NCBI GenBank assembly: GCA_032718475.1
Contig: JAUCBJ010006472.1
Coordinates: forward strand, 1-64,000
Origin: Nemertoderma westbladi
Taxonomy: Eukaryota > Animalia > Xenacoelomorpha
Direction: 5' to 3'
Length of the DNA stretch: 64,000 nt
Of the stretch, positions 25,958-64,000 are shown piece after piece. Position 1 is the first letter of the stretch. Every line of letters starts with the position of its first letter. The notes below the pieces were generated by a model, which was not told the origin of the DNA, searched no databases, and saw only the letters and a program-made list of their open reading frames with translations. The position numbers were made by a program, and so were the translations under genes.

Positions 25958-28128
25958 AATAGGCCTACATACAGTTTTATTTTAAACGCCAATCAATGTC
26001 TACATTACTACAGTACAGTCGTCAATAACCAATTATTGCCATGGGCTATCTCGATACCGCTATTGTCTGGATAGGATGGGAACGATTACCGTATGTCCAG
26101 CCAGCTGTTGTGAAACGACTGCGAATGTAACAACAGCTGCGATATTATAGGCCTCATTGATAGAAAACAATAGAACTACTGAATATTGATAGAAAACAAT
26201 ATAACTACTGAATATACAGTAGAGACTAATCATAACTGATAATACTGAATATAGAGTGTTTCATATATGTCAATATAAGTGTTTCATACTACATACTACA
26301 GTATGTTAGAGTGAACGCGCTGTACTTAAAACATTTTTGGCTCAACAAGTAATTTATTATGAAATCTGACAGTGACTACTACACAGTACATATTACTTAC
26401 TAGGTCGAGCGAGCTCGGGTAGTGGAATAGGATTGGTGCGCGAAAAAATTGTTGGCGCTAGAAACAATTGAATACGGGGTAACAAGGTGCCCTGAATCTA
26501 GTGGCGGCGTGTGATTTATGTAAAAACACGAGGAAACGGTCGAAAATACGGGTTTAAGTAAGCGCCGGAAGCCAATTTTGTAAATGGGCTGTGATTGGAT
26601 GCTACATATTTGACGTCATTACGCAGTGCTCTGATAATTTCTTATCGTGGTTTCTATGGATAGAGATTTTCGATCGATTCAAATACATATTTTTTAAATC
26701 ATTACGCCCCCAAGCGAGGCAACTGGGAAATTTAATCATTATTTCAATAAATTGACCAGTGAATATAAATATGTTAAAATAGAATATAGGAACTACATAC
26801 ATGAATCGATTATTCAACTGAAAATTAATTATCTAATTAATTTATTATAATTAATACTAATTAATCAATCCGAAACGCAATGCTGTCAGTGTGGTCCAAC
26901 TGTCGCAAAGAGGCCCAAAGGGTGTCATAAGTGACACGCGCGGCTCTTTTATTTATTAATACTTCTTTATTTGTATTTAATTTTAATTTATTTATATTTA
27001 ATTATTTGTATTTGTATTTAATTTTAAATTAATTATTTATTTGTACTTTATTTTAAATTAATTAATTGTATTACTTTTACTTTATACATTGATTTATATT
27101 TTTAGAATTATCAATAATTAGTTTTTATCTTACAAATGACATCACTATGACATAATGTCTATATTTAGCTCTATGGTTTATAGATCCCTTGCTGGCAACT
27201 AATTACTCTATTGCATCCCACATACCGCATTTACAGTGAGCCGACCATCAACTACACTCATCGGCGGCCCCCCTCCTTTGTCATCGCCCCCATAACGTGC
27301 CACAGCGGGGGCCCTCTTAATATTCTTTGTGCTGCATCAGGATTGCCTCATTTAAGGAAGCCGCATCCCTATCGATAATCTAATTATGGTATCGCTTATC
27401 ATTTTCAGTATACTGTATAATTAAATAAGGCCCTCTTTTAATACTGTACATAAGTTTATGTATACAGTTTATCTTCAATTTAATTTGTTTTTATTTACAA
27501 CTCGAATTGTTCTACTGTATTATAATTTATGTTTTATAATAACAAGCTATATCCGGTTAATCTGTATTAATTTTCTTTGTACTGAGGTTATCGAGGGCGC
27601 TCTTTCCAATGGTCCTATTCTCAAAACGATCTAACCTACTGTATAATTAATTACTTAAGACTGCGAGGTATGCGTAATTAACAAATCTCGTTTACCAGTT
27701 TTCCTTAAAAACTATGAAGCCATATTGCTTAAGAGTTCTGCGGGGCTAGCTATGAGGCAAGATGTTTGAGAATAATTTAGATATATTATTACTTAATTTT
27801 GACCCCCCAGTCGGTATCTATTACAATATGGGCTACATCTTTTGCAGAATCACAGAGTAGTCTGAAATTCCCCAGTCTGCCGCTAGAGGGCGAATTGTCT
27901 CAAAGTGAAAACCATATAGTAGCTATGAATTGGTTACTAGGCAATAATACTGCATTTTGCAAAGTTAGGCCTATTGCTGACCGAATGAAAACTGCCCGGG
28001 TTCATGCGGGGATCGAACCCATGACATACGGGAGATGTGAATTCAACACAACCACTACACCAAGTGGAACAGTAACCTTCGAATTTGTTCGTTGACGTTC
28101 GAATTTGTAAGACTCTCATTTAAGACCT

Positions 28129-28453
28129 GACACAGACTATGCCTTACTGAGGCACAGACTATGCCTCACTGAGGCACTGAGGCACCGACTATGCCTCACT
28201 GAGGCACAGACTATGCCTCACTGAGGCACAGACTATGCCTCACTGAGGCTAAGACTATGCCTCACTGAGGCATTGAGGTATAAAATATGCCTCACTGAGG
28301 CATTGGGGCATGGACTATGCCTCCTGAGGCATAGTCATTGTCTCACTGAGGCACTGAGGCATAGACTATGCCTCACTGAGGCATAGACTATGCATCACTG
28401 AGGCATAGAATATGACTCATTGAGGCATAGACTATGCCTCACTGAGGCATAGT
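28129..28453 (+). repeat. 22-bp palindromic tandem repeat CAGACTATGCCTCACTGAGGCA, left arm
   Basis: Direct reading; internal palindrome TGCCTCA-C-TGAGGCA; 8-bp CTGAGGCA slippage units. Confidence 0.95.
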
Positions 28454-29036
28454 GCGATGCTGGGGGAATCTGGTTTGCGAGGGATATTTGAATGGTGAGT
28501 ATAACAATCCTTGAGAGTTAGTGTGACGTTATCTCACCATGGATGAGTTTTACCACTGTACTCGCATCTGCTCTCTCATTGGCTGCTCGATGCCTCAGAT
28601 TAAGGGTCTAAGGCTTTCAAGCTGTTTATTTGCTTAGTTTTCTAATTAGAAGGTCGTGAGTTCGAACCCTAGAAGAGCATCATTCTTTTTCCTAGCTCTT
28701 GGCTGACTCTAGTGTACACTAGCTTTGACTCAACCAGCTATAGTGATAGTATGCAACCTTGGGAGTTAATGCGCTGTCTTATGAGTAAAGGCCAAGTGAT
28801 TAGACTTCAGGTTGCCACTATTGGTTCACTCTTCTTAACTTTATAAAATAACTCAACCCTTATTTAAAGTTTTAAAAATTATCACTTAGTCGACTAATTT
28901 TCCAAAGTATTTTATATAAAACATATAATTTCTTGAATAAATAGACCTAATAGAAATAAATATTGTGGGATGTAAATACATTTATAATACTAGTATAATA
29001 ATAAGAAATAAGAAATAAAATAAGATAATAATAATA

Positions 29037-30210: not shown

Positions 30211-31397
30211 TAGTTTTTCCTTTCTATGTGACGGGATCAAGGATCCCGACCGGATAGATTGTCTATGCGTCACCGTCGTCTTTAGGGGTGCTGGCAGTTT
30301 GGCCAAGGCCGTTGCGGAAAATATGGGAATTCGATGTTATCTCCTGGTGTTGTATAATAATATATGTGATAGCACAATGACTGAATAACTGAGTAGATTG
30401 GCAATAGTATGTGTCTGAATGTTGATGATATTTGGTGACGGTGAGAAAAATGTCACCGGTCTGCACTTAAACTGATGACTGAGTAACTGAACCGGTAATT
30501 AAATGCATTGACAATATATGTAATTACTCCTATGCTACTGTGGCCTTTCATCCAGTGGATGCTCTCCCCCGCCCCCTATTGGCAGATAATCTACTTCACG
30601 CCTCTCACCTCTCTGGGAGTGCTTCCCCCCCCCCCTTGTTGGCCCCTGTTGGTTATTTTCCCTCCCGAGGTGGTTTGACCTCTAACCTCCCTTTGTGTGG
30701 CTTTGGGGTTGTGTTGTCCCCGGTGTTGGATTGTGATACAAGATTAGTTATTGCCAATCTCGTACCTCCAACATATTACTGAAAATATGCCACTTCCCAT
30801 TTATGAGGGTAATGCAGCGGAACTGAATCCGCTTACATTCTATGTGTTTCCATATGACGAGATAGATTGTCTTGTTTCATTTCTTTACTACAAACCAAAC
30901 AACTTTCATGTCTATGCATTATATTATAGCAATGTCAATTGATAGTATTGTATTTTAGCTAAATGATTTTACAAACTTTTAAATAAATAAAACTTTTATG
31001 AAAATAAATAAAACTTTTTAAAATAAAAATTAGAGAATGAATGGGAATGCGGAATTATAGAGGGAGGCTAGAATGGATTATCCAATCAGAGTGCGAGGGT
31101 GAGTTAGGCAGCCAATCAGGACTCGATGGAGGAAAGTTAAGCAGCCCATGAGAGAGAAGATGCGAGTACAGTGGTAAAGCCCATCCATGATGAGATAACG
31201 TCACACTAACTCTCAAGGATAGTTATACTCACCATTCAAATATCCCTCGCAAACCAGATTCCCCCAGCATCTAAAGTATTCCACTTCAATGCAAAATATA
31301 TAGAGCTTTAGTTGGATTTGAACCTGTGCTTTTAAACTCTTTTGTGCTCGTATATTGTAATTTATTGTTCATATAATGCAATATAACTCGGCTATTT

Positions 31398-31785
31398 AGT
31401 CTGTGCCTCAGTGAGGCATAGTCTGTGCCTCAGTGAGGCATAGTCTATGCCTCAGTGAGTCATAGTCTATGCCTCAGTGAGGCATAGTCTATGCCTCAGT
31501 GAGGCATAGTCTATGCCTCAGTGAGGCATAGTCTATGCCTCAGTGCCTCAGTGAGGCATAGTCTGTGCCTCAGTGCCTCAGTGAGGCATAGTCTCTGCCT
31601 CAGTGAGGCATAGTCTGTGCCTCAGTGAGGAATAGTCTGTGCCTCAGTTAAGCATAGTCTGTGCCTCAGTGAGGCATAGTCTATGCCTCAGTGCCTCAGT
31701 GAGGCATAGTCTGCGCCTCAGTGCCTCAGTGAGGCATAGTCTGTGCCTCAGTGCCTCAGTGCCTCAGTGAGGCATAGTCTGTGTC
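31398..31785 (-). repeat. 22-bp palindromic tandem repeat, right arm (inverted)
   Basis: TGCCTCAGTGAGGCATAGTCT(G/A) array, reverse complement of 28129-28453. Confidence 0.95.
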
Positions 31786-32000
31786 AAGTCTTAAAGGAGA
31801 GTCTTACAAATTCGAACGTCAACGAACGAATTCGAAGGTTACTGTTCCACTTGGTGTAGTGGTTGTGTTGAATTCACATCTTCCGTATGTCATGGGTTTG
31901 ATCCCCCCATGAACCAGGGCAGTTTTCGTTCGGTCAGCAATACGCCTAACTTTGCAAAATTCAGTATTATTGCCTAGTAACCAATTCATAGCTACTATAT

Positions 32001-32260: not shown

Positions 32261-33885
32261 TTACTCTAGTTTGTTATACTCGCTGTTCGAGTAACGTAAG
32301 GGCGGTTTTATTATTCTCCCCGACCTAGTCTGGATTGGAGGGGTAACCGGTTGTGGGGCTGGCTGTGGCCTGGCGGCCATTTCAGCCCACGTTGGCTGTG
32401 GTAGGGCCGGTGTCGGAGGTGCCACTGGCTGCCTCGGTGTCTCTGGTTGAGGGGGGTCGCCCTGTGGTGGGGTCGGGGTGGCGCACCCCGTAGTGAAGTG
32501 GCGCTGCCGGAGTAGAACGCGGTTCCGGCGGAGTACGCGGCCACTGGTCTGTCGGACCAGGTAGTCGTGGTTGGGGAGGCCCTCAGCGATGGTTCCCTGG
32601 CCAGTCCAACGTTTGGTTGTCGGGTCCTGGATGAGGACTGGTGTCCCAACCGGCATAGCCTTAAGGCTGCGGGCGTGGTGGTCGTAATTTGCCGCGAGCT
32701 GGTTTTGATTGGTCGCGGATGTGGCGTCGAGCTCTGTGAAGGTCTTTTGCCACTTGGGATCAAACGCGGTGAAGTGGACGGGTAGGGCCTCCCTGACATT
32801 GCGGCCGTATAAAAGTTCCGCCGGGGAGCGGCCGCCGTAACGCGAGGTGTTGCGGAAGGCGAGGATGCCCTTCGCGATCTCGTCGGAGTTGTGGCGCGCC
32901 CCGCGGACCAACTTCTTTAGTGCTTTGACGGCCGCTTCGGCGCGGCCGTTGGTGCGCGGTAGGTAGGGCGTAGAGGGCTCCAGTCGGACACTCCAGTCGG
33001 ACAGGAATGACCGGACGGCGTCGGACACCAGCTGGGGCCCGTTGTCTGGACGGATAACGGTCGGTACCGCAGTGGCCAAGAAGAGGCGGCGGAGGCAGTC
33101 GATTATTACTGGGGAGGTTGAGTTCTGGCCGAGTTTGTAAAGGGTGGGCCAGCCGGTGAATTCGTCGGTCACAACGAGGTAGTTGGTGCCGTCTAGGACA
33201 AATATGTTGGTGTGTACTCTTTGGAACAGGCGGGTGGCGTCCGGGTTCCGTTGGAGTGGCACGATGGTGGGTGCGATGGGAGGGCTGCCTGACAGGGTTG
33301 GCAGCGCTCGACCGTCTGTTTGATGTCGTTGGGTATGGAGGGCCACCAGACGGAGCGACACGCCCTCTCCCGAGTTTTAGTGAGTCCCTGGTGGGCGGCG
33401 TGGAGTAGCCGGAGCGTCTCGGGACGGAGTTCGACGGGGATATAGAGCTGGGGCCCGCGGAAAATGACGCCATCGTGCACCATCAGCTCCGAGCGGAACT
33501 GGAAGTAGGGCCGCAGCTGGTCGTCGGTGACGTTGTGTTTGGACGTCGGCCAGCCGTCCCGGATGGTGGCGAGGAGCGCGCGGTACACAGGGTCGTGCTG
33601 CCCGGCCTCCCGGATCTGGTCGAGCCGCGCGTCCCGAGATTCGACCGACGGGGTGGCGGCGGATGCGGCGACGGCCGCGGAGACGATAAACTCCCGGTCG
33701 GCGTCGTCTTCCGGGGTGAGGAGGATGTCGTCGGAGGTTGGGGAGTTCCTGGGGGCGCGGGAGAAGGCGTCGGCGATTACGTATTTACTGCCGCGTTGGT
33801 GGCGGGCGGTGAAGTTAAAGCGCGACATCAACGTCTTTAACTTCAGCAGCCGATCGTTGCTGACCTGGTCCAACCGGCGGTCGTT
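32261..33885 (-). pseudogene. pol: Ty3/Gypsy pol 3' part (end of RNase H, integrase), frameshifted
   Basis: ADAFSR, HAAHQG...CQPC zinc domain, VTDEFTGWP, DNGPQ, NGRAEAAVK; frameshift near 33265; high GC. Confidence 0.92.
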
Positions 33886-33981
33886 CTAAAGGAGAAAATT
33901 AGTCACCAGGAGCATGAAGAGACTAATAAACAGATACTGAGACTCCTGCAATGCTATGAGGATTCCGAAAAGTATTTCCTG

Positions 33982-35361
33982 TTGTTGAGAAATCCGCAGA
34001 TGCGCTTAAGGGATCGATTCTCTAGCACAATGATAGATGGGTTAATACGTGTTGGAGGAAGACTAACCAATGCACCCTTATCCTTTGACACTAAATTCCC
34101 CATACTCATTAGAAATCTTGAAGTACAAATCAAGATGATTGTAGATGTTCACAGTAAGCTTTATCATGCTGGAAGAGAACGAGTTCTTAGCGAAATTCGA
34201 ACTCGCTATTATTTTGATAAACCCCGTAGGGCTCTGAACCAAGTTCTTAGGAACTGCATACCCTGTAGGAAAGCATTCAGTAGGCCTTTAACACAGCGAG
34301 AGGCAGAATTACCTAGGGAACGAGTAAGCTTCTATGAACCACCTTTTACTAATACTGGTGTAGATTTATTTGGCCCTATTGAAGTATATCGTGCGAGGAC
34401 TATAGTCAAGAGATGGTGTGTCATCTTCGTGTGCATGACTTGCAGAGCCATCCATCTCGATATGGTGAACGATCTATCTACCAACAGTTTCGTCTTAAGT
34501 TTACGACGACAGATCGCTCGCTTCGGTACGAGTAATACCATGAGATCGGACAAGGGAACGAACTTCATTGGTGCCAACAACGAAATACAGGCTTACGTAA
34601 AGGACTGGAACCAAAGACAGGTGGATGACCAGCTAAGGATAACAGCGTCTAGCTGGACCTTCAACGCCGCCGACGCCCCTTGGTGGGGAGGAAGTTGGGA
34701 GAGATTAATTAGAAGTGTTAAGACCGCATTTCACTTTATAGTGCCATGCCGTGCGTATCTCACCGACGAACTTTTGCGGACGTTAATGGAGGAAATAGCT
34801 GCCTATCTCAACGAGAGACCGCTTATGCCAGTCTCATCGAGTCCCGATTCCCTGGAAGCGCTAACACCTGCGCACTTCCTACTAAAGAAACCGGTAGCCA
34901 TGCTCCCACGATCGGAGATTGCCGACGGAGACGAATACTGCCGTCGAACTTGGCAACTTATGCAGTTGCTATCCCGTTGTTTCGCTGACCATTTCGAGAA
35001 ACATTACCTGCCCACACTACAACTTCGAACTAAGTGGTTTGCGCAGCAAGAAAACGTCAGCGCCGGAGATATGGTACTTATTGTAGATCCAGACCTCCCA
35101 CGTAAACGGTGGCAGACAGGTCGTATCATCGAGACCCATATCTCGGAGGATGGTTTAGTACGTTCAGTAGAACTCATCGTTATGCGGCGTAACTTCAAGA
35201 AGCCCGGTATAATCTTTGAGACGCAACAACTCAATCGCCCAGTTGGTCGTTTATGTTTACTGGAAAGAGACAGAGAACTCTCTGGAAACTATGGAAGACA
35301 AGACACTCTTCCCACGACCACCTCCCTAATTCCTCAAACATCTAGGGACTCCCAAACGTGA
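33982..35361 (+). CDS. pol: BEL/Pao pol, integrase region (5'-truncated)
   Basis: GLIRVGGRL, HSKLYHAG...CIPC, PFTNTGVDLFGP, RAIHLD, SDKGTNF, APWWGGSWERLIRSVK, LTPAHFL and RPVGRLCLL are hallmark BEL integrase motifs. Confidence 0.93.
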   Translation: MLRNPQMRLRDRFSSTMIDGLIRVGGRLTNAPLSFDTKFPILIRNLEVQIKMIVDVHSKLYHAGRERVLSEIRTRYYFDKPRRALNQVLRNCIPCRKAFSRPLTQREAELPRERVSFYEPPFTNTGVDLFGPIEVYRARTIVKRWCVIFVCMTCRAIHLDMVNDLSTNSFVLSLRRQIARFGTSNTMRSDKGTNFIGANNEIQAYVKDWNQRQVDDQLRITASSWTFNAADAPWWGGSWERLIRSVKTAFHFIVPCRAYLTDELLRTLMEEIAAYLNERPLMPVSSSPDSLEALTPAHFLLKKPVAMLPRSEIADGDEYCRRTWQLMQLLSRCFADHFEKHYLPTLQLRTKWFAQQENVSAGDMVLIVDPDLPRKRWQTGRIIETHISEDGLVRSVELIVMRRNFKKPGIIFETQQLNRPVGRLCLLERDRELSGNYGRQDTLPTTTSLIPQTSRDSQT

Positions 35362-36480
35362 TACGTCTGGAGTGGGTGTATGACTATGTTATTTATCTAT
35401 TTTATTACATTTTATATGCGAACTTTATTATGTACTTTATTATAATCGTTTTTATTCAATTTTTATTTAGTAGAATGTTATTTTAGGGATTATTTAGTAG
35501 ATTAGTGCAATATATTAGTGTTTATTACGTACATAATTACTTATAATATATATTTAGTGCGACGGCGAGAAATAATTTTTTCTCTTTCCTTACTGTCCGT
35601 ATCATATTATAAATACGTGACTACAGTAAGATGAAATGTCCGTACTTCTTAAAGTACAATAAAGCCACTACTATATTCAAGTAGTAGGTAGGCAGAGTAT
35701 TAGGAATGCAAAGTTCAGATCCTCGTGTCTCGGCTAAACCAAGCTCTGGGTAGACCTTGGAAACGACTTGCCTCTTCACACTGACATTGCTTCGTGCGAT
35801 ATTGCTCTTCTACCTTATAACAAATAATACATATAGTAGCGTGATGTCCCTCTAACAGTAGCGTAAATCGCAAATAAATCTGTTAAACTTTTTGACCATC
35901 TGTAATTCTAGTCGATTAAGATATCGTGGCACCCACCGATATACTTGAAAGACAAATTCTAGAATCAGTGGTTAACGTCCCCAGACAAGTTCTGGAATAA
36001 ATCGGTGCTCATCCTAAATATTAATTTAATATTTATTAAAATCTGTAAAATCCCGATCCTTTAAAATTTCTAGTCAATTAAGATATCGCAGTATTTACCG
36101 ATATTCTTAGAAGGACTATTTTATAGAATTAAGGATCCTAAGTTCCCAGATATGCTCTGGAATAAAATTTATGTCAATTTAACATCAAATAATAAAATTC
36201 ACGGGAATAAATTTAAATTCATATTCAAATGAATTTCATAAATTGTCATTTTTTGCAATTTATAACATTCCCAAAATTCCAGTAATTAATAGATCATGGG
36301 AGCGGAGATTCATATTGAGTGTATTAAAGTGCGAGAATCTCCAACATATAGTCAATAGCCGATAAAATTTATAAAATCATGCATAAAGAGGATATTGACA
36401 ACTAAAGAATTACTATTAAATAACATCCCAGATCTGTATGCATGAGAATTACCCTAATTCTACCGCTAGTTTTCCATAAT

Positions 36481-37817
36481 TTTGGGTTGTTGTCACAGGC
36501 ATGCTGAGTTATATATGGAATTTACAACCTTATATAGGACGGCAGGATAAACGTGAAGTGAACCAGGGCCAGAGGGTTGTTTTGCAGCTAACTGAAGGTT
36601 TGTCTGGGAGAAATATTACTACTGATAATTTCTATACATCGTATAATTTGGGACAGTTACTAAAGAAACGCAATCAAACATTAGTTGGCACAGTCAGAAA
36701 GAATTAGCCCGAATTACCGAAGGAGTTTGTTGATCCCAAGAACCGAGTTCTGTACAGCTCAATATTTGGACATAGAGATGATACAACCATTCTATCATAT
36801 TGTCGAAAAAAACACTACAATAAATATAAAAAAACACTACAATAAATATAAAGGTGGTGTAGATTCGGCTGACAAGTGTTTGTCTACTTATACTGTAAAG
36901 AGGAAGACACGCCGATGGCCAGTGGCTGTATTCAGCAACATGGTAGATATTGCAGCCTATAATGCTTACATTATATGGGTTGTTCCCTGATTGGAAGAAA
37001 GGAAAGCTCTACCGACGACGATTATTTCTAGAACGCCTTGGCCGCGAATTTATTGGGCCATTTATGATGGCCAGATCCACTATGCCACGGTCACAAGCCG
37101 CTATTGATATCATTAACGTCGCCCATGCCCAAGAAGATGAGAGATCTTCCGGAAACTCAAAGTCATACTCTTCCATTTCTGAATACAACCACGACCACAA
37201 GCGGGGTCGTTGCTCATTACATGACCGAGCCAGTGATGTAAAAACTGTACTAGTATGCACGAAATGTAAGAACTTTGCCTGTCAAGCCCACGCAGTTGCT
37301 ATATGTACGAGCTGCATAGGATCTCTGCTGTAATATTCAGCACACTACGAATTATATTGAATAATATTGAATATTATGTTTCAATAGTAGCCAAATTTAA
37401 ATGCTTACTTGAACAATGGGTAAATTGGGCAATGGGGTGGGTGGGTGGGTTGGTAGGGTTTGTCATATTTACATGCCAGATTGAGACAAAATAACAGGGT
37501 ATCCAGTTTGTTTGTAGGCAAATAATATTTAAATTACACTATCATCATTAAAATATCCTTTTGGGTGATCCACAAATTACTTGAAGAATTTTAATAAACT
37601 ATAAAATGCTTTTATTTATGTAGTACAAAATATACTTCACGTGCTGCGCGAAGTTTCCAAGAGTGTTGATATGTTTTAAAAATGTCAATTAATGTAGGAG
37701 TATTCTAATATTTACAAATATTATGGAACTTGTACCTATTTTAATAGTAAAATATACTGGGGTCGCAAACGACCCCAAGGGACACCAATACAAATTAGAA
37801 TAAGGTACGTATGAAGG
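36481..37817 (+). mobile_element. piggyBac 3' fragment with degraded transposase
   Basis: TTDNFYTS, VGTVRKN, YNKYKGGVD, RRWP, NAYI and a C-terminal Cys-rich domain (36501-37333); subterminal GGGGTCG-CAAA-CGACCCC; ends ...ATGAAGG then TTAA at 37818-37821; flanked by a 65-bp direct repeat. Confidence 0.9.
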
Positions 37818-38380
37818 TTAAATAACATCCCAGATCTGTATGCATGAGAATTACCCTAATTCTACCGCTAGTTTTCCATAATGTCACCATGGCAACACTC
37901 ACGCTAGAATTAGAAGCAAGTTAAAGGAACAATAAAAGGCTTGCCCCATTGCGTAGCCTAAGAGGATACATAGCGCACTATTAGTATCCAAAGATACATA
38001 GTAATAACGTGACATTCTGGAAGACACTGACTAACGAACAAATGGCCTGCATGTGTGCAGTAAGTAATGATTGTATGGAATTTGTGCGTTTATAGGTGAA
38101 TGTTACTACTAAAGTGTGTTTACAGTAGCTAATCGCAATTGTAAAGTAGCCCTAACTCTACCGAGATAACCTCAAGTGGATTCAAGCTTTTGGGACGGAC
38201 AGTGGTGGGACTTGTGCCGGTTATCGTTGTCGTGCTGTTGCTACATGTTGGCGTAAACACCGCGACAACGGTATATCGGCGCTGAGAAACCCACTGTCCG
38301 GGGGCAAAGACTAGTAGGCAGCGACGCCCGCTTGCCTAAATATTAACTCATACTGATATTAATAAACTCAGATAGCAGAT

Positions 38381-39881
38381 ATGACGGAATTGATAGAAGA
38401 TGACCTTGGTATTAGAGAGCGATATACTCTACCTTTACAAGCGTTTGTGGATAGCTTGATACGCGGTGAAGCCGATCCGACTATTACGGAGGACGATGGT
38501 CGTTATATCGAACCGCCAATGTCCCAAGAGCAACTTACGCGTGAATTGGACTATCGAAAATTAACCGCTCGCTATACGCATCGTAATGGTACGTATATGG
38601 ACATCCTAACTACCGGCCATCCTATCGATTTACATGATACGGACGATGTATACACCGAAAGGGAAATGGTTCTATTTAAATATCATACCCAGCGGAGTCG
38701 TAACGATAAACCGAGAATAGATCACGAAAATTATATTCGTAACAGGCTGGGAAGACGAACCAATATGCCTAGAATCTGAGGAGATTCAGCCTATCGCGCC
38801 CGGAACAACGACAACGATTACCTCCTAGAATGGTATCAAGGTCCACAGTGTCTCACTGCGTACGATTATCGCCATGCCAACTATGTTTCTCGGCAACATT
38901 GTCGGTTATGCGCATCGAGAGACCATGTTACGCCCATGGACACAAACGTCCGCTGTTCCTATTTCCACGAACAACCGACGATGGAAATTTATTGCGCTTA
39001 TTACAGACTCAATAACTTGCACATTTTTGCGGTTTGCCCTCAATTTATGACTCAATGTCACCATTGTCAACTAAAGGGACGCGCCAGTTTCGATTGCCCT
39101 TTTTAGTCACGATTTGGAAAGCGTAGATGAAATGATCACACTACGTTACATCAGAGCTTGGGAAGCGAACGCTGATTTACATTGTGATTCGCGCCATCGT
39201 TATTATCCTGGACGCGCTTACGAAGGAGTTTATGCGTTCCATCCTTATCTATTCGCTTCTGTCGAACAGAAATCACGCATATCAAGTTATGAACTACTGA
39301 AGCGCGTTGGAGAATGTATTTCAACCAAATATGTGCGCAAATTTCTCAGGAGCATTAATCCGAGTGACATCTATTCTTACAACTTAATAAACTTTATCCG
39401 TCAAGACCCTGCCTATGGAGACTTATTTGTCAACTCACACCCCGAGTTACAGGAAGTATATCGACGGCCTTACGAGTACCGAGCCCGCGAACGCGAGTTG
39501 GAAAGAACCATTAAACCAAGGAAGTTTTTAACTGCCTATGGTCCACCCACGGCCCTCGTTCAGACCACTCGTAAAGGACCCATAAGAGCGGCTGTCTTGA
39601 AACGAGCTCTCAAAGCCGTTAGACCCCTCTCCCCGGACGTTGATGTCAATCAACCCGGTACTTCGACCGGCGGATATACCGACCGTAATCCCATACCTTC
39701 TGATGCAATCATATTGCACCCTTCACCCAGGAGTTATAGCCCTCCTCGTAAAGTGGCTCGCCCCAAAGAGAAAAGGACTCTTGCTAGCTTTAAAAACTGC
39801 ATAAACGCCGTCCGCGCAAGAAAGACTAACTGTTTAGAGTATTTTTATATTTTAGAAACTGTGATTTTGTATATTTTATAG
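38381..39881 (+). pseudogene. BEL accessory ORF with three CCHC-type zinc knuckles (copy 1)
   Basis: One frame from 38381 through a TGA at 38777 to 39105, then a 1-bp insertion into ORF 39114-39881; HCRLCASRDH..C, C..(C/Y)RLNNLHIFAVC, C.HCQLKG(H/R)ASFDC; homologous to 61205-62217. Confidence 0.8.
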
Positions 39882-39907
39882 ACTTAAATCCCATTTTCTG
39901 GGAGCGG

Positions 39908-41112
39908 TGTAAAAGCTTTTGTGGGATAACTGATTCGTTTGCCTTGCTGGCCAGTTCCCCCCGGTCGCTAGAATACTCTAAAAGGGATCTATAGCTAAAA
40001 TAGTGCAAGCTACCAGCTTATTGGCTGATGTGCTGTACGAAGGTATCTGGGTTCTGTTCGATCGGCCAACCAGCTTAGGGAGGTTGCCTCAGCCCTGCTG
40101 TCCGTATCGGCCAATAGAATTTGAGTGGGCGTTGATTTTGACCTATCCCAGAGCTACTGAACTGAATTTCCTATCTGTATGCTCATCCTCTGTGTTGGAC
40201 GGGAGCTTCGGGGAATAAGGGTAGTTGGTATCCTCGTATAGTTATGTAGTCACATGATTCTGTTGTTGTGTTCCCATTTTTCGCCATAACACCGGCCTTT
40301 TGGGAAGAACTCTAGTAAAACTGCTTAAATTATCGAAAGTATAACTGTTATCTAACTCAATCATCTATCTAACTAACTCACTGGTAATCATATTATTCTT
40401 CCGAACTTTACTTATTAATTATATTGTTTGTACTGTTATTTACCGTCAGTTATTAATTGTATCTATTTGTTGATGAATTATTGCCCTTTGGAGAATACGG
40501 ATAAATCACCCAAATTTCCCAATTTTCTTGATACACTACAGGTTAGAGAGACAGGCTATACATAACAATTGCGATTTATATTAATGTGGTGTGTATTGAA
40601 TCTAATGTTATTTAGCAGACCCTACATGAGTCAATTGCTGCTCTCTTTATGTGTGATCAAATTTACTGACAGTCGGCAGAATAGTGTGCATGATTGTGAT
40701 TGGTAACAAAGCATTTCCTAAAGAATGCGCCTTATACTTTAATCATAAGCAGTATCGTTGCGTTTAGTTTAAGTCCTAGTTCTGTTTAAATAGATAGAGC
40801 GCCACGTCCTAAAGGAACTGTTAATATTTCCCGAAAGCCAATAATATCTGTCAGAAATTAATTATTAACGATCTATCGAATAATACAGTAGTTTTACACT
40901 GCAACCTTACAATGCAATAATAAAATTTAAGCATCCGAATTCAGCCTCCCGGGTGTAGATCCATCGGGTGAATGATCGCGCATGGGCTGACTTCGGCTAA
41001 TGTTTTGTTTATTAGCATAAAATATTGTCGTATGCTAAAGGTGTTTTAATTAACTAAAAGACATATAAATTTTGGCAGGTTAAACTGCTAAAGGTCTTCA
41101 AAAGCGCGAACA
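39908..41112 (+). mobile_element. BEL/Pao 3' LTR (1205 bp)
   Basis: TGTAAAAGCTTTTG...AAAGCGCGAACA, preceded by a purine tract; related to the solo LTR at 2308-3526. Confidence 0.85.
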
Positions 41113-46940: not shown

Positions 46941-49127
46941 CTATGGACTGTCAATTAATTCATCTAAATCCACCGTGTCTGATTCGATAATAATACCATT
47001 TCGCAAACGGGATGACCGATATACGTCGGAGCAGTTAGTCGGCAATGGGGCCTCGACAACAGCAGTCCGACGGTCTGGGGAAGTCCGACCATCTCGAGCC
47101 GTCCGACTTCCACACTCTGCGGCGCCGACGGCCGTCCGACCGTTACTATCCGATATATCGAGCAGGCTAACCGAACTGCGACCTTCCGCCGAGCCGCTGC
47201 ACGCGGTGAAGGCATCGCTGCCCGGGATACCCAGTTGGTTAATCAACATGTTGAGGTTGTCCTGAAGGCTCTGCGAGTCTAGAGTACGCATGGGGGTGGT
47301 GACGGGCTCGGGTCTGCTCACAAGAACGTATTCAACCCCTCCGCTACCGTCCATAAGCATCGCCATATCCTCGTTCACACGCACGGCTTGTTGTCCGCAA
47401 ACATTTACTGCATCCATATTCGCTAGGTGACCACTCCTCGCTAGATCACCTTGGGACGTCGTTACTCTGTTACTACTCGCGTATGATTGGACGGCTGTAA
47501 GACTCAAAGACGGTTGACTGACCCGAACATCCTTATCCACCGATTGGTTACCCGCTTTACCAGCGAGGTTCTTACCTTTTTGCCTAACTCCCGAATCGTT
47601 TACCCTTTCTGACGAATGAACCTCCTCCAAACGATCCAATTCCAACAAATGGTTGACGCCACGCCGTCTGTGTTTACTCTCGTGGCGATTGCGAACTATA
47701 ACAGTGCGAAACCTGTCGCCGCAAATGCGACACGCGAAATTGTCCGTAGAAGAGTGCTGATGCATGTGCACCTTGAGGGAACTCATGTTGGCCAGACTTT
47801 TGTTGCATATTTGACACTCGACCAGCTTGAGTTTCTGGGACGCGTGCGTGCGGAGATGGGTAGTGAGCGTCGACTTGACGCGAAACATCCGCCCGCAGCG
47901 CTCGCACCTGTACGGCTTGGATCCCGTGTGCACGAGGAGATGACGCTGCAAGTCGGACGGTTTATCGAAGGATTTCCCACAAACCGTGCAAGTGTGTTTC
48001 TTTTTATGCGAGAAATGGAAGTGATGACTATAAATGACCTCCTGTTGGGCGGCCACGTTGTTTACGACCTGCGTTAGGGGGTCGCTGGCCGCGTATTGGC
48101 CGACAGTTGAACCTATCGGCGCCGTTACGTCCACTACAATAGAACCCAACTGCGGCCGATCTTTACTACTGTTATGGGGTTTATTCACCCGCGTTTTAGG
48201 GCAGGAAACATCTGTAGAGTTACGAGTCCTGAATTCTAACGACTTTGCACTTTTCCCTCGGTCGTACAAACATTTAAACGTATGTCTCTTATAAGAAGAT
48301 TCCGAAATAAACGACTTGAAGCAGATCTTACAGGAGTAGGAAGCGACTTGTTTCTCGCGTTTACGTACGTTCGGACTCCGGTGTTTCTGTGTGCGGATGT
48401 GTTCCAGCAGTAGGGCTCGCGTCTCGAACACGTTGCTGCACAGATGGCAGGCGTGCGGCCGATCTGCGGCGGCGGATTTACGGGACATCCGGCGGGTCTG
48501 GCGTTGCGCCGGTCGGCGGGTGTTGGGGCCGCCGGCTGAGGCGCGGGTTCGCTGCTGGGTGGGAGGCGGGGAGGGGGGAGGGGGTCGTTGGAGGGGGCTG
48601 GGCCCCCTGCCTGGAGGGGGCTCCGTGGGGGGCTCGATGTATAACTGCTCGGATTGCGGGGGGAACAAGCTGTCCGGGTATTGGATTGGGTTACTTTCGG
48701 GAAGTGGCGTTCGTTGCGGCGAATTAAACAACGCCACGGGGTTCACAACGCCGCCTATTTGGTGAGTCCAGTCGTTGAGGCAACTGAAACTCATATCGCC
48801 GGTCGCTAGGTTGCCGCGATCGAACGCCGGCTGCAGGTCGAGCGCTCGCACCAACGCAGACATGTGTGTGTCGCTTAGCAACGAGGTGTCCCAGTTGTGT
48901 AGGTTGAGTCCGTCCACGAGCGCGGAGGAATCCTGTTGCTCATCGAATCCCGTTCCGGAACAGTTGTAGTCCAACATCGAGGGACTCACGTGCAACTCCG
49001 GGAGGTCGGTGCCTGGAGTCCCCGCTAAGGGCGTCAGGGAGGCGAGGGTTGGTTGAGACTGCGGGAACATTGCGGGAGTTGCTTGCTGCACCATAGCTGG
49101 ATTGTCTGGTTGGTTCCGGAACGCACC
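46941..49127 (-). CDS. ZNF236: ZNF236-like C2H2 protein, exon 2
   Basis: Acceptor ttttaacAG| ending at 49128, in frame with ORF 46941-49094; fingers FDKPSDLQRH and FRVKSTLTTH match the ZNF236 finger pattern as recalled. Confidence 0.8.
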   Translation of the reverse strand, partial: GAFRNQPDNPAMVQQATPAMFPQSQPTLASLTPLAGTPGTDLPELHVSPSMLDYNCSGTGFDEQQDSSALVDGLNLHNWDTSLLSDTHMSALVRALDLQPAFDRGNLATGDMSFSCLNDWTHQIGGVVNPVALFNSPQRTPLPESNPIQYPDSLFPPQSEQLYIEPPTEPPPGRGPSPLQRPPPPSPPPTQQRTRASAGGPNTRRPAQRQTRRMSRKSAAADRPHACHLCSNVFETRALLLEHIRTQKHRSPNVRKREKQVASYSCKICFKSFISESSYKRHTFKCLYDRGKSAKSLEFRTRNSTDVSCPKTRVNKPHNSSKDRPQLGSIVVDVTAPIGSTVGQYAASDPLTQVVNNVAAQQEVIYSHHFHFSHKKKHTCTVCGKSFDKPSDLQRHLLVHTGSKPYRCERCGRMFRVKSTLTTHLRTHASQKLKLVECQICNKSLANMSSLKVHMHQHSSTDNFACRICGDRFRTVIVRNRHESKHRRRGVNHLLELDRLEEVHSSERVNDSGVRQKGKNLAGKAGNQSVDKDVRVSQPSLSLTAVQSYASSNRVTTSQGDLARSGHLANMDAVNVCGQQAVRVNEDMAMLMDGSGGVEYVLVSRPEPVTTPMRTLDSQSLQDNLNMLINQLGIPGSDAFTACSGSAEGRSSVSLLDISDSNGRTAVGAAECGSRTARDGRTSPDRRTAVVEAPLPTNCSDVYRSSRLRNGIIIESDTVDLDELIDSP

Positions 49128-50032
49128 CTGTTAAAAATAAAAAAATAAAAACAAATGTTTCAATCAATATTATTAATCAATAGGCCTCAAGAAAAAGTGA
49201 ATTGTATCTGATTAAAAGTGCGGTAAATTAGCAGCTGTCTAGTGAAAGTTAGTGGAACCAGTTATTAATACAGGTAGCCTTGGCCGCTTGGGTGAAACGG
49301 CTACTGTCCTATGATACAGTTCTAAAGTAATATTTAAAGAATCTAAAAAAACAACGGTAAAATTCTTGTAACTCTGGATTTGAACAGAGGGACAGGAACA
49401 TTTCGTTTACGACAGGAACACATGTTGTTTTCATTTGTTTTCGGGCTTTTTATTTTATAGGTTCTATTTCTAATTATCAGTATCAGCGGATGTTGACTGT
49501 TGTTATCAAATCAGTTTAATTAAAATAATAAGTTAAAAATAATTTCATTCCAACGCAAATTAATTAATAATAGCGCACAAATATTTACGGATATTATATA
49601 AAATATATTTAATGAAAACTATTTTTCCACCTTTGCCCGTATCGGCCTACTTTACATGAAAACTAAAAGACTTCATCATCTTGTTGACACTAAGTTATTT
49701 GTTATTTAGTTAGACCAGCTATTTAGAATTGTATTCTGCTTTATTCGTAACATATTTAAAACTTTTTATTGATGTTAGTCTTAGTATTATTCACAGCTCT
49801 ATAGTTTTTTATGTAATTACTAGACTACTTCGTCTACTATACAGTTGTACTACTTGATGGTTAGGCCCTAAATATTTTTTTCAATCGGCTTTCAGATATT
49901 TATAACGTATCTTTATATTTATAACTCTCTAACTTATTATAAAGGAAAAAATGTATAAATTTAGTTCACTATTCTCGAGGTATAATATATTGAATTTACC
50001 GATAGCCATCATAATAGTGAAATAACTATATA

Positions 50033-50939
50033 CAACATGTCCCAGAATATAGTGTCGTAATTCAGTGACACGCCCCCCCCCCCCCCCCCAAATTTTTCTA
50101 CAAATCTTAATGAGATTGTATGAAATTTGAAACAGAGATAGTTTCACCTACCTCCTCCTTGCTGGGTGAGCCAGAATTTTAATTTTTGCTTTCATTCTTT
50201 AGCTACAAGTGTTTGAAAAAGGTGTCTCCGGTGATATTGCACCAGTTACACCGCAGTTATTCTTTAAACATTTAGTGATTTGTTGGTACTAGTGGAAAGC
50301 TGACCGTGCAAAGATTCCAAATATGTAAAAATATTTGAATTTGGTTGGGAAATAGCTGAGATATGGGCATTCGAATGTTGCATGTATTAGCTTCCACTGC
50401 AGGCCATTTATTCTATTAAATAAATACACAATGTTCTAGAACATTTTGATTATGTGGGAATATCTATAAACTAGTATTATCATGTAGGCATTGCATTGTT
50501 GCCAAGCTACTTATGAGATAAACAAAATGTTCTAGAACATTGTGTATTTATTAATTGAAGAAATGGCCTGCAGCGGAAGCAAATACATGCAAATTTCGAA
50601 TGCCAATAACTCAGCTATTTCCCAACCAAATTCAAATATTTTTACATATTTGGAATCCTTGCACGGTCAGCTTTCCACTAGTACCAACAAATCACTAAAT
50701 GTTTGAAGAATAACTGCGGTGAAACTTGTGCACGACGGAGACACTTTTTTTAAACGCTTGTAGCTAAAGAATGAAAGCGAAAATAAAAATTCTGGCTCAC
50801 CCAGTCAGTGGTCGGGAGGTGAAACTATCTCTGATTCAAATTTCATGCAATCTCATTAAGATTTGTAGAAAAATTTGGGGGGGGGGGGGGGGGGGGGGGC
50901 GTGTACCTGAATAACGACACTATATTCCAGGACATGGTG
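50033..50939. mobile_element. Tc1/mariner-like foldback MITE in the ZNF236-like intron
   Basis: TA TSD (50031-50032, 50940-50941); TIR CA(A/C)CATGTCC...; about 415-bp inverted arms (50033-50447 vs about 50523-50939). TIR stub also at about 21872-21891. Confidence 0.9.
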
Positions 50940-51269
50940 TATTTAAGTGGTGGCAATAAAGTAGGCTTTTTTCGTCGAGCGATTTTATTTGGCGAGCGTA
51001 GCGAGACAAATAAGAAAGCAAAACAAAAAATGTTACTTTTTACCACCACTTACGTCGTATTATTTCTGGTAAGTCTTCTCTCACTTTTATCTGGGCCTAT
51101 TTCAGCATAAATATCGTCCTTCGAAGCTTCTTTCATGGTGAAATACGGGCATTACTATACCCAGGGTACCCATAGTTTGACCAATTTTTTTCATATAAAA
51201 AGGCTTTTTTCATTAGATTTTTTTCTAGAACAAATATTGACCTTCTGACAGTAGGATGGTATTTTTTTC

Positions 51270-51500
51270 CAAAAAATGTTTTAGAATAAAAAATGTGTTC
51301 TAGAACATAAATATTTATCAAAATTGATAATTAACACTTCTTCAATAACATTTATAAAAAAGTAGAAAAAAATAGCTAAAAGTAAAAATATAAAATGTGT
51401 TCTAGAACAAAAAAAAGTGTTCTAGAACAAAAATATTTATCAAAATTGATTGCTAACACGTGTTCTAACATTTATATAAAAACTTAAGCAAAAACTAGCT
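51270..51500. repeat. About 120-bp tandem duplication rich in GTGTTCTAGAACA
   Basis: GTGTTCTAGAACA(T/A)AAATATTTATCAAAATTGAT occurs twice. Confidence 0.7.
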
Positions 51501-51765
51501 AGTAGCTAGTATTAGAAATTATCTATTTAAATGCAATAATTAATGTCATTGAAACATTACTTTTTTTGTTAACAAAAAAAGTGTTATTTTTATGTCAAAC
51601 TACAACGTCTTTGACAAAAAAGTGACTTACAGTTACAGCAAATAAAAAATGTTCTACGTTTCTTCCAATGCATTTAAAAACAGCAAATACCAGAAACCTT
51701 ACAATAGGAAAAATTTGTGATCGATTAACAAAATTAGTATCCTTCCCTCCACGTATATAACTCAC

Positions 51766-54700
51766 CGCTGTTTGGCCCCACGAGACTGTGGATGAATTGT
51801 GTCGCGTCGTGAAGGATTGTGTAGCCTGGTAGGTTGGATTCTGTAGCTGGGGATCGGATCTCTGAGTCCCAAGATCGGTAAGGTGTTGAAACAACGCAGG
51901 GTTGATCTGGGAGTGTTCTGATCCCGCAATGAGCCCATCGGGGAGCTGCACCGGCATGTGGGACGCACCGTTGGCGTGATGCACCGACAAGGCGCGGCTT
52001 TGTGGTGGGTTGTCCGATCTCAGCGCGTTGAGGTGCGTCGCCATATGATTCATACACGAGTCCAAACAAGCGAACCTTCGGAAACAATACGGACACAGAT
52101 AGGGTTTATTGTCGTCGTGAATAACGCGTGTATGCCGATCCAGACTGCCTTTAGTGGTAAAACTCACGGAACAAATGGAACACCGGAAGTTTTTTAGACC
52201 GGCGTGAGTACCAATATGGGCTTTGAGTGAGTGGCTTCTGGTAAATCGCTTCTCGCAGTGGAGGCAGGTGTAAGGCCGGTTGCTATTATTGTGGAAGCGA
52301 CTGTGTTGCTTCAAATGAATCAATTTACGGAACGATTTATTGCAGATGTGGCAAGGGTAGTCCAACCTAGGCGGCGGTTCAACCTGCTTCACTTGTCCGC
52401 TTTCCGCTATAAATAAGGGTGCCGACATCGGGTGTATGAGAGGCGGCTGCCCCTCCTGGGCTTCGGATCGCAACAGTTCCCTCGATGACAGGTAGTGGCG
52501 GCTGCGGAAGTGGGCGTCACGGTGGGCGACTGTGCGGAAGGTACGCTCGCACAATGTGCAGGAGTACGGACGGGAACCCGTATGTATGCGCATGTGGACC
52601 TTGAGAGAGGCTGAGGAAGCGAACCCTTTCTGGCAAACCGCGCAAACTTCGTCTTTAACACCGTAATGCATTTTAAAATGTACCTTCAAAGCGCTCTTAC
52701 ACGAGTATTGTTTGTTGCAGTAGTTGCAACGATACGGCTTTTCATTCGTGTGTGTACGAGTATGCCGCACTATATCGCATACCTTTTTAAAAGCTCTATG
52801 ACAATATTGACATCGGTAACCATCCTTCGTTTTGCACAGTGATGGAAGATTGCTCCCGCAATCGTTGGGCTGATTGTCACTCATTTTACGCAGGACGTGA
52901 TTCCTGAGAGACATTCTCACACTAATAGTGTTTGCTCCTGAACCTTCAGACACAACCTTATCGGCATTACTTGTCGTGCGTACCATATGTGAGTTTGAAG
53001 TTATATCGTCACATTGTTTGGGCCTATCTGTTTCCTTAGTTACAGTGTGTATATTTCCATAGTTACCCAGTAACTCGGATACCGCCTTGTGGAATTGATT
53101 CTGAAGACGTGTCGTGCTCCCAACCCAACTCTCTACTGGTTTGGGTTTATTAATTGGACGCCCACGGGATGAAACAGATGGCTGACAATGATCAACAGCT
53201 TCCAAGTCCGACAACTTCTTTCGCAATATTTGACTTTTCATCGCATCGCGCAGAACTTCGTCGCATTCTGGATGCATTCTAGAGTAATGCAACTTAAGTG
53301 TTCTGGTTTTGTCGTAACTACACGAGCAATAGTTGCACTGAAAGCGTTGCGTAACATCGGATTCATTTGACGGCTGTAACTCTTGATGTGCATTCCTGAG
53401 GTGAACTTTAAGATTCCCCCTATGGGAGAATGTCGCACTGCAGTGAGGACAAGCAACTGGTCTCAGGGATTTCTCCGTGTGAACACTGGCCATGTGACGA
53501 GTCAGAGTTTCTTTTTGGTTGAAGGACTTATCGCATTTGTCGCAGGGAAAGGGTTTATCGCCAGTGTGAATCCGGTAATGTCTGCGTAGTTGAGCCGGTC
53601 TTGCGAAGGATTTAAAGCACTGTTTACAGCTTTTATCATTGTTTCTGTAACGATAAATCTTGATCCGAACTTTATCTGAATCTGCCAGGGTTTCACCAGT
53701 TTCACATTCAGACAAAGCAATAGATTTCGGTAAACCATTGACGTTGATTGCAGGTTGAGAATTTCTTCCCGAATTCGTTGTCGTATCTCCATTAGCGTCC
53801 GCTACAATACCGCTACATTCAGTAACATTAACAACACTCGCTCTCGAAGCAGATGGCGAATTACTGTCGCCAACATTAGGAGCTGACAAGGGTGTTTGCG
53901 TTTTGCTAAACTTCAATATACTATGAGTGGGTATATTTATTGTGTACTGTTCGTCATGACAATCGTTAATATGTTTTAATATTTGGTTCATTGATTGAAA
54001 TCCAACATCACCACAAATGTTACATATCAATTCTTCATCTCGCATGTGCATTACAATATGAGATATTAATCCAGCCCTTCTTCGAAAAACACGCTTACAC
54101 TGAGAGCAAATTAGGGGTTGTGATGAATCTGAATGGATAATTTTGTGTAATTCCAAATTCTTCATAAAATTAAATTCCATGTCACAATCTTCACATTTAT
54201 AAGGGCGAGCCAACAAATGTTCTTGAATATGTAAATCGAATTTCGAATATACCTTGAATATTGACGGACAATAATCGCATTTGAACGGAGGTTTTTTTGA
54301 AATAGTTCTGATATTCGGTGGCGATTCGATTGGGGTTTTAGAAACATCTGAATCAAGTAAATCGGTGTTATCAATAACATTAGATTCACACAAATTAACA
54401 TTAAAATGTTGAAATATCTCATTTGGAGGAGCGGCCATCGATAAATTACGGTTAGTAACATCCTGAAATGTGGCAACACTAGAAACCAAAGGCCATGAGT
54501 TAGTTCCTGTGAAGTATAAGGGTATACCCTGGCTTGCCACAATCGATGGAGCACCAACACTTAGCTGTGATTCAACGGTTACAGGTAATATTCTACCTGC
54601 TACATTATATACGGATAATTCACCAGTAGTTGCGTCTCTGATTTGAATAAGATTAGTTGGGATTGACGTAGTGTAATTATTAGTATTACTGGTAGAATGT

Positions 54701-55053
54701 GTCGCCATAATTTGGGGATTTTGGGAACAAACATTTTGGCTGTCTGATATGTTTCGAGACATCAATAAATTGGCATTTGAAAGTGTTCCATAACGCAGAC
54801 CTAATTCATTCACTACTTCCACATTAGAAACGCTAATTTCCTCAGTATTGACATATCTTTCAAGGGCATTTATATCAGGTAGATTATCCAAATCATTTGG
54901 ATCTGCAGCTATATCAAGTTGTTTATCACCGTATGTAGTTGGTATCGTAGTATTACGAGCTGTCCCGCCTGTGAGAATGTTAAAATCGTGAATCCAATCG
55001 CAGTCAGACGAAAGTTGACTAATGGAAGAGATTCTATGATCAGTTGCATCCAT
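51766..55053 (-). CDS. ZNF236: ZNF236-like C2H2 protein, exon 1
   Basis: 1096 codons with 16 CxxC fingers; clusters FARPAQLRRH..FNQK..FSHRGNLKVH and FKKVCDIVRH..KSALKVH..SSASLKVHMRIHTGSRP..FRTVAHR parallel ZNF236 clusters as recalled; donor GCG|GTGAGT, phase 0; total about 1824 aa. Confidence 0.85.
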
Positions 55054-61154: not shown

Positions 61155-61206
61155 GTCGTGACTAAAATAATAAAGTCGCGACTAAAATAATAAAGTCGCG
61201 ACTAAA
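61155..61206. repeat. 20-bp tandem repeat GTCGCGACTAAAATAATAAA at the BEL breakpoint
   Basis: About 2.6 units directly abutting the truncated end of BEL copy 2. Confidence 0.85.
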
Positions 61207-63986: not shown

Positions 63987-64000
63987 TTACTTTCTCCGCT

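Follow-up and report, generated by a model that had tools for sequence, protein, structure and literature searches.

A constrained zinc-knuckle gene linked to pol in an abundant BEL/Pao retrotransposon family, with a candidate RNA hairpin before its start codon

BEL/Pao elements are described as gag-pol elements, and only a few of them have an env gene. The nematode element Cer7 is said to have a further ORF 3′ of env. In lentiviruses, Rev acts on the unspliced RNA, and the RRE stays in the unspliced RNA. To my knowledge, it is an open question for nearly all LTR families how an intron-containing retrotransposon RNA exits the nucleus or escapes surveillance. In the literature searched, CERV is the sole case in which the export has been worked out. 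CERV is encoded by a non-env 3′ ORF of Cer1, a Ty3/gypsy element of C. elegans; it has a spliced mRNA and a Cys-rich loop, and it is needed for the export of the genomic RNA (PMC10309623). Plant and rotifer LTR elements can also carry extra 3′ ORFs (PMC7264820, PMC5408684), and the rotifer ORF3s come from spliced messages (PMC5408684). In the available parts of these two sources, the host elements are of the gypsy type and the products are TM, coiled-coil, GDSL, or DEDDy proteins, with no multi-knuckle protein and no BEL/Pao element among them. As for the few env-bearing BEL/Pao elements, roo has an F-type env and a mosquito BEL element has a Chuviridae-like glycoprotein (PMC3118150, PMC13524379).

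The window, that is, the whole stretch of 64,000 nucleotides analysed here, was compared with itself. It was found that the window has two inverted copies of one element: copy 1 from 33884 to about 40427 on the plus strand and copy 2 from 63987 to 61199 on the minus strand. In both copies, pol is followed by an extra ORF, hereafter called ORF-X. Like the sense 3′ accessory ORFs (aORF-3S) of plant and rotifer elements, ORF-X is a family-wide extra gene behind pol, with a conserved frame on the strand of pol; such genes are typically separate spliced units. The env-bearing BEL/Pao elements belong to the same superfamily, and env occupies the same slot as ORF-X if the 3′ LTR sits where it is proposed below. 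However, neither the signal peptide nor the transmembrane anchor of an env-like glycoprotein was found in ORF-X, and no similarity to a fusogen (F or gB) was found in Pfam, the PDB, or the protein libraries. CERV differs in belonging to a gypsy element rather than a BEL/Pao element, in having a C4-type loop rather than three or four CCHC knuckles, and in sharing 5′ exons with gag; moreover, its function has been shown in Cer1, whereas that of ORF-X is a proposal. The literature searched, outside of which lay Repbase, Dfam, GyDB, subscription journals, and supplements, revealed no zinc-knuckle accessory gene in any BEL/Pao element. Thus, with no earlier case found, ORF-X is apparently new for BEL/Pao, while extra 3′ ORFs of LTR elements as such are already known, which limits the surprise. 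An abundant family having a constrained orphan knuckle protein and an adjoining candidate target hairpin makes the question of export and surveillance directly testable.

The pol gene of copy 1 (33884-35361, plus strand; stop codon 35359-35361) is a 5′-truncated BEL/Pao pol with an integrase zinc finger, an integrase core, and DUF5641. Its Pfam matches are Integrase_H2C2 and DUF5641, indicating a BEL-type integrase. The 120 relatives listed are Pao-type polyproteins with 33-44% identity, nearly all having PF05380 and PF18701. These relatives bear the Peptidase_A17/Pao RT and DUF1759 domains, which places the element in BEL/Pao (Belpaoviridae). Both copies are 5′-truncated; another LTR element cuts into copy 1 from the 5′ end, and copy 2 extends past the window edge. 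The integrase (rve) of a second LTR element (32261-33885, minus strand; G+C 0.59) adjoins the truncated pol at about 33884, and the matches of X4 and X5 contigs to copy 1 also start at 33884. Here, X1 to X5 denote the five sequencing runs whose contigs were compared, out of six runs from four studies that contain the stretch; they may include the source of the window itself. None of the runs listed is recorded as RNA, which carries no information on expression. The last 46 pol codons of copy 2 (63847-63987, minus strand) differ from copy 1 by 10 synonymous and 7 non-synonymous changes (dN/dS 0.21).

Copy 2 has an uninterrupted spacer of 1.6 kb (62218-63846, minus strand) behind pol. In copy 1, the non-coding spacer A (35362-36480, plus strand; 5.7% divergence between the copies) is followed by a nested, 5′-truncated piggyBac transposase fragment (36481-37817, plus strand; Pfam DDE_Tnp_1_7), which is missing from copy 2 and has a depth of 101-201 in X1 and X3. 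A direct repeat of 65 nt flanks the piggyBac piece (36416-36480 equals 37818-37882). Across 36416-37882, the fragment lacks a left end, and the perfect 65-nt repeat opens with TTAA without being a plain TTAA duplication; this is an aberrant insertion or repair event. Spacer A also has an internal duplication (35906-36001 and 36068-36166; 75% identity) with moderate folding (z about -2 to -3), which is present in both copies.

The sequence-only reading had located an ORF starting with MTELIEDD in both copies, about 1.6 kb behind the pol stop codon. Both points were confirmed. The start codon lies at 38381 in copy 1 (plus strand) and at 62217 in copy 2 (minus strand), and the distance is 1119 plus 498 nt in copy 1 when the piggyBac piece and the 65-nt duplication are left out. 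On the other hand, 38381-39881 (plus strand) cannot be read as the single ORF it had been taken for: the frame of copy 1 has an in-frame stop codon at 38777, a deletion or shift at about 38755-38800, a shift at about 39100, and a probable shift at about 39796. Copy 2 of the gene (61199-62217, minus strand) is truncated at 61199 and consists of the N-terminal part, a segment of 109 codons (61851-61525), and knuckles 2 and 3. The 109-codon segment, which ends in C-x2-C-x9-H, exists only in copy 2 and has been lost in copy 1. A deletion junction at 61524 in copy 2 has a short shared word (microhomology) on either side. Thus, ORF-X is real, yet it is broken in both window copies by different deletions, shifts, and stops.

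All three CCHC spacings that had been reported exist, but they are split between the copies. Knuckle 1 (C-x2-C-x4-H-x9-C) is present only in copy 1 at 38900-38956. Knuckles 2 and 3 (C-x2-C-x5-H-x4-C and C-x2-C-x4-H-x4-C) are complete only in copy 2 at 61469-61365; those of copy 1 at 38993-39097 lack one ligand each. A CYCDEC motif had also been pointed out. Its first Cys is private to copy 2, since base 61565 is read otherwise by nearly all contigs (545,961 of 548,223 of the X2 depth differs from copy 2). What is left of the motif is the C-x2-C-x9-H that runs into the deletion, and this may be the start of a fourth knuckle. The deletion at 61524 is special to copy 2, because contigs of four runs leave copy 2 there and continue with letters matching the knuckle 1 region of copy 1. 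Furthermore, an X5 contig leaves copy 2 at 61511 into letters of neither copy, and therefore a part of the gene is missing from both copies. A length of more than 600 residues is reasonable for the whole protein. At 61852, too, X4 and X5 contigs part from copy 2.

The basic, Pro-rich tail that had been described was found as such (22 K+R and 14 P in 105 residues). In another frame of copy 1, a basic motif resembling a nuclear localisation signal, KRRPRKKD, is followed by a stop codon (39803-39829, plus strand). This is likely the true C-terminus of ORF-X in the family, because 49 X1 contigs and 4 X4 contigs leave copy 1 at 39796 and because 1-nt indels relative to copy 1 are common in the contigs at 39869 and 39885. 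The T run near 39100 was considered as the site of a programmed -1 shift, and this was rejected: the conserved frame is not reached in that way, and copy 2 is open there.

Is ORF-X under selection? The first 59 codons had been counted as having 9 synonymous and 2 non-synonymous differences between the copies, and exactly these numbers were obtained (dN/dS 0.06). However, these codons are the most favourable stretch. Among the 168 further codons that the copies share, 4 changes are synonymous and 13 non-synonymous, and the pairwise comparison looks neutral beyond the first 59 codons. All 227 shared codons together have 13 synonymous and 15 non-synonymous changes, giving a dN/dS of 0.32 (p 0.0045), while off-frame controls range from 0.37 to 4.9 and none is significant. 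A value near 1, which had been named in advance as one result that would speak against the gene, was thus not observed. The patchy pairwise signal fits recombined lineages together with decay after insertion. In the contigs, 36 of the 40 best supported variants of the copy 2 ORF-X (out of 165) are synonymous, against an expectation of 0.33 for transitions (p about 1e-13). By segment, the synonymous share of these 40 is 24 of 27 for the middle part, 9 of 9 for the knuckles, and 3 of 4 for the N-terminal part. In the pol control, 19 of the 22 variants listed are synonymous. In the copy 1 ORF, eight of the nine listed variants could be classed (one lies in an uncertain frame), and 3 are synonymous and 5 non-synonymous; four of these five are changes due to the decay of copy 1 itself, since at least 94% of the depth reads otherwise there. 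Purifying selection is therefore supported by the pairwise counts and more strongly by the family-wide ones, and ORF-X is constrained along its length.

ORF-X was found in the contigs of all five runs compared. In X1 and X3, the summed depths of pol, spacer, and ORF-X are from a few hundred thousand to 1.3 million, although depth is not equal to copy number. In X1, the depth bins of pol (0.47-0.93 million) and ORF-X (0.27-1.10 million) are at parity, and X3 is similar. The family is very abundant, since only such a repeat yields these depths, and the abundance of ORF-X is close to that of pol. In X4, the depth of ORF-X is 5 to 20 times that of pol and highest near the 3′ end (38013-40055), and over the 109-codon middle segment (61525-61851) it is about a quarter of the depth on either side. 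A mislabelled run with a subgenomic RNA could produce this pattern, as could a shorter, non-autonomous form.

I performed homology searches with ORF-X. A phmmer search of the N-terminal half of copy 2 against 1.84 billion representatives gave only two hits (E 8e-6 and 6.5e-5), both long repetitive proteins. They were dismissed; the one inspected is a bacterial-type repeat protein. Word-index searches with the copy 1 sequence read through with X and with the knuckle region had no match in protein libraries covering lengths of 274-874 and 91-293. No relative was found in the scans of contig collections, where a phage protein (L001) shares an 8-residue search pattern with ORF-X by chance, nor was a homolog found in the 81 BEL loci described below. 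Pfam, NCBIfam, and the PDB gave nothing significant. The top match in the atlas is a zf-CCHC cluster at 0.85, and all matches are below 0.9. Two single-sequence AlphaFold models have pLDDT values of 35.5 and 35.6, too low to be informative. In the PDB, the knuckles of ORF-X matched Air2 and MoMLV NCp10 with an E value of about 0.8, which is not significant. Like ORF-X, the Air1/Air2-ZCCHC7 proteins and the retroviral nucleocapsids have tandem C-x2-C-x4/5-H-x4-C knuckles with a short linker, but the likeness is limited to the knuckles, and the remaining protein is without a relative. Searches of the protein libraries and the PDB found no relative of ORF-X, named or unnamed, CERV and Rev included. 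Thus, ORF-X is an orphan zinc-knuckle protein that likely binds RNA, as judged from its motifs.

It was also assessed whether ORF-X is a gag or env gene. ORF-X has no Pfam match to DUF1759, the BEL gag domain, and its best BLASTP hit among 120 BEL polyproteins has an E value of 0.051. The linker between the knuckles is 6 residues long; of 78 full-length BEL polyproteins, 73 matched the knuckle pair, and every one of these has a linker of 20 residues. No protease lies behind the knuckles, where the ORF ends. The missing DUF1759, the different linker, and the missing protease indicate that ORF-X is not a BEL gag. Likewise, it is not an env, because it has no hydrophobic segment; the best 19-residue Kyte-Doolittle mean is 0.97, in agreement with what had been noted before. 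A match to gag, env, or a described ORF had been named as evidence against the gene, and none was found in the libraries searched. The view of ORF-X as a conserved, multi-CCHC accessory gene of a BEL/Pao family, different from env and from gag, is therefore supported.

The spacer in front of ORF-X has a long imperfect hairpin of about 120 nt with 50 predicted pairs, which ends 70 nt before the ATG (38188-38309, plus strand, in copy 1; about 62289-62410 in copy 2). In a folding scan, the sense strands of the two copies gave -62.9 and -64.6 kcal/mol (z -5.7 and -5.9), and none of 200 shuffles was as stable. The antisense strands gave -46.0 and -42.3 kcal/mol (z -4.6 and -2.4), indicating a sense bias. 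Eight differences exist between the copies in the hairpin; with the structure derived from both copies, four fall on paired columns and all of these preserve the pairs, while the other four are unpaired. No two-sided covariation was found between the two copies, and Rfam has no match. By GC-corrected energy, the hairpin ranks 8th of 2130 windows, most of the higher ones lying in tandem or inverted repeats. As other windows also reach z values of -4 to -6, the hairpin is strong but not unique. From this modelling, it is a candidate cis-acting element.

A block of 26 nt identical in both copies (38355-38380, plus strand) lies directly before the ATG and has candidate AG acceptors at 38371, 38375, and 38378, with no clear pyrimidine tract. 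The spacer region 37844-38330 has Cys-rich and hydrophobic frames and several N-x-T words, with stop codons common to both copies. One bin of 100 nt there has 8 of 12 changes at third positions, not a significant count given the number of bins tested. A small ORF in this region, on either strand, was weighed and rejected as unproven, considering the common stop codons and an inconsistent frame bias. A second, weaker hairpin is found around a TATAAA at 35542-35661 (z -1.9 and -2.8); the copies differ by only 3 substitutions over the 200-nt block that contains it.

Where is the 3′ LTR? Behind ORF-X, a purine-rich word and a TGT at 39909 may open a putative 3′ LTR (39898-40427, plus strand), and another repeat begins at 40428. 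No second LTR copy partnering the site at 39898-39911 was found in the window. Compared with 8 verified LTR starts of relatives, the 39909 site is at chance level (44% of 2625 TGT sites are as good). Behind 40055, all four runs compared lose about 7- to 20-fold in depth, which would fit LTR interiors that vary among subfamilies. The relatives used here are 80 of the 565 confirmed BEL loci in one part of a metagenome collection, plus one viral contig. In 48 of the 61 relatives with a complete integrase end, a polypurine tract with TGT is located between -8 and 522 nt relative to the pol stop codon, according to a motif learned from the same loci; lying so near the stop codon, it leaves no room for an ORF-X-like gene.

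This raises another explanation, in which the true LTR lies right after pol (35377 to about 35686, followed by a primer site) and ORF-X is the first or only gene behind that LTR. ORF-X would then be the upstream ORF of a tandem element, or belong to a non-autonomous partner (LTR, leader, ORF-X, LTR) fused to the BEL element, or it may be a divergent gag-like protein. An LTR-like layout is indeed present: a purine-rich word and a TGT at 35377 sit 16-19 nt behind the pol stop codon, within the range of the relatives, and are followed by TATAAA at 35608 and AATAAA at 35658, neither of which occurs in the region behind ORF-X. The copy 2 site after pol scores 7.0 (the lowest leave-one-out score of a true site is 8.2), against less than 2.9 for the site after ORF-X. 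After AATAAA comes a word resembling an initiator-Met primer site (about 35686-35698), which has one extra base relative to the site given in PMC1797187 and is complete only in copy 2. The X4 bins, at 4,643-32,937 for ORF-X and 238-1,463 for pol, are a weak hint in the same direction. However, no ACA end precedes the primer-like word, although ACA closes the 5′ LTRs of those relatives in which the end is clear; the word occurs in none of the 81 relative loci; and no depth peak exists over 35377-35686. The lack in ORF-X of DUF1759, of a capsid match, and of a protease after the knuckles also speaks against a gag-like protein. Both of the independently diverged copies show pol and then ORF-X, which would require a tandem or fused unit in each case. 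I consider a true LTR after pol unlikely; the layout there may be either such an LTR or the relic of one that works as an internal promoter. Since two of two independently diverged copies link pol to ORF-X, the sequence arrangement suggests that ORF-X is probably in the 3′ accessory position of the element.

Among 78 full-length relatives, 73 have knuckles in the BEL gag. Some relatives also have long knuckle ORFs behind pol, but 8 of the 13 frames proved to be the gag of circularly assembled contigs. The remaining 5 frames (in L012, L052, and L070) match neither gag nor ORF-X. L070 has a Cys-rich ORF of 389 codons (9633-10802) with a weak PHD match, which begins at the 3′ LTR end and extends outside a complete BEL element. 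In the IMG/VR contig L082 (1-4810), a BEL integrase end is joined to phage genes for DNA polymerase B, RecA/UvsX, and DnaB; this contig is probably chimeric.

What may ORF-X do in the accessory position? The best, though tentative, answer is that it may be a regulator similar to Rev and CERV, binding the unspliced RNA of its own element. The ORF-X message would likely be spliced or subgenomic, with a splice into one of the AGs before the ATG. Such splicing would leave the hairpin only in the unspliced RNA, like the RRE. The knuckle protein with its basic tail would bind the hairpin and export or protect the unspliced RNA of the element, so that ORF-X likely acts in the nucleus. I infer each of these steps, namely splicing, hairpin retention, binding, and export. 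The scheme draws on the linkage of pol and ORF-X in both copies, their similar depth in X1 and X3, the excess of synonymous variants, the knuckle-type features, the sense-biased hairpin followed by AG candidates in an invariant block, the candidate basic motif, and the precedents of CERV and the rotifer ORF3s. Against it stand the LTR-like layout directly after pol and the chance score of the putative 3′ LTR, the hairpin that is not unique and has neither two-sided covariation nor an Rfam match, the AG sites without a clear pyrimidine tract, the neutral pairwise signal past 59 codons with 5 of 8 copy 1 variants non-synonymous, and the difference between the C4-type loop of CERV and the CCHC knuckles of ORF-X. 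A broader claim would be that a BEL/Pao lineage has evolved its own Rev/RRE-type switch, made of a spliced multi-knuckle regulator and a hairpin, as a third lineage of LTR elements and with an orphan protein family. I regard this as doubtful.

The same anatomy was weighed against other roles. ORF-X might counter RNA surveillance or silencing, for instance by acting as a decoy of the Air1/2-ZCCHC7 proteins in TRAMP/exosome targeting or by suppressing small-RNA silencing; this would allow the family its very high copy number. Knuckles 2 and 3 align with the Air2 knuckles with the same spacings, and the family is very abundant, but the alignment (E 0.82) covers 39 residues without significance, and Pfam gives no Air2-knuckle match at E 10. 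Rotifer LTR elements bear RNA-processing DEDDy ORF3s (PMC5408684), whereas no nuclease domain was found in ORF-X. Since this role also leaves the hairpin and the AG block unexplained, I consider it rather unlikely; the Rev/CERV-like role fits the anatomy better than anti-silencing does. The retroviral type of the knuckles and the basic Pro-rich tail would suit a second nucleocapsid-like chaperone, which is packaged in the cytoplasm with the genomic RNA and aids dimerisation, packaging, or reverse transcription, with the hairpin as the packaging signal. However, knuckles are already supplied by the BEL gag, the larger part of ORF-X, outside the knuckles, is conserved as well, and the C-terminal motif resembles a nuclear signal, making this role quite improbable. 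A resemblance to Nanos had been suggested from the loose string C-x2-C-x-NN...CP...CP-x-C...H...CP, which would make ORF-X a translational repressor of host germline mRNAs. Nanos proteins have the spacing C-x2-C-x12-H-x10-C-x7-C-x2-C-x7-H-x4-C. This spacing (x12, x10, x7, x7) is missing from ORF-X, and neither zf-nanos in Pfam nor a Nanos structure in the PDB was matched at E 10. The resemblance was therefore discarded, and a Nanos-like role is highly improbable.

The window, which most likely comes from an invertebrate animal, is also rich in repeats beside host C2H2 zinc-finger exons. At 46941-55059 (minus strand), long host exons encode many C2H2 zinc fingers (729 and 1154 codons), which I take to be ZNF236-like. 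A fragment of a non-LTR reverse transcriptase, presumably RTE-like, lies frameshifted at 16386-17394 (plus strand). A structure resembling a foldback element has long inverted arms at 27914-28587 and 31140-32000, which contain 22-nt tandem units and surround 27-nt and 84-nt arrays.
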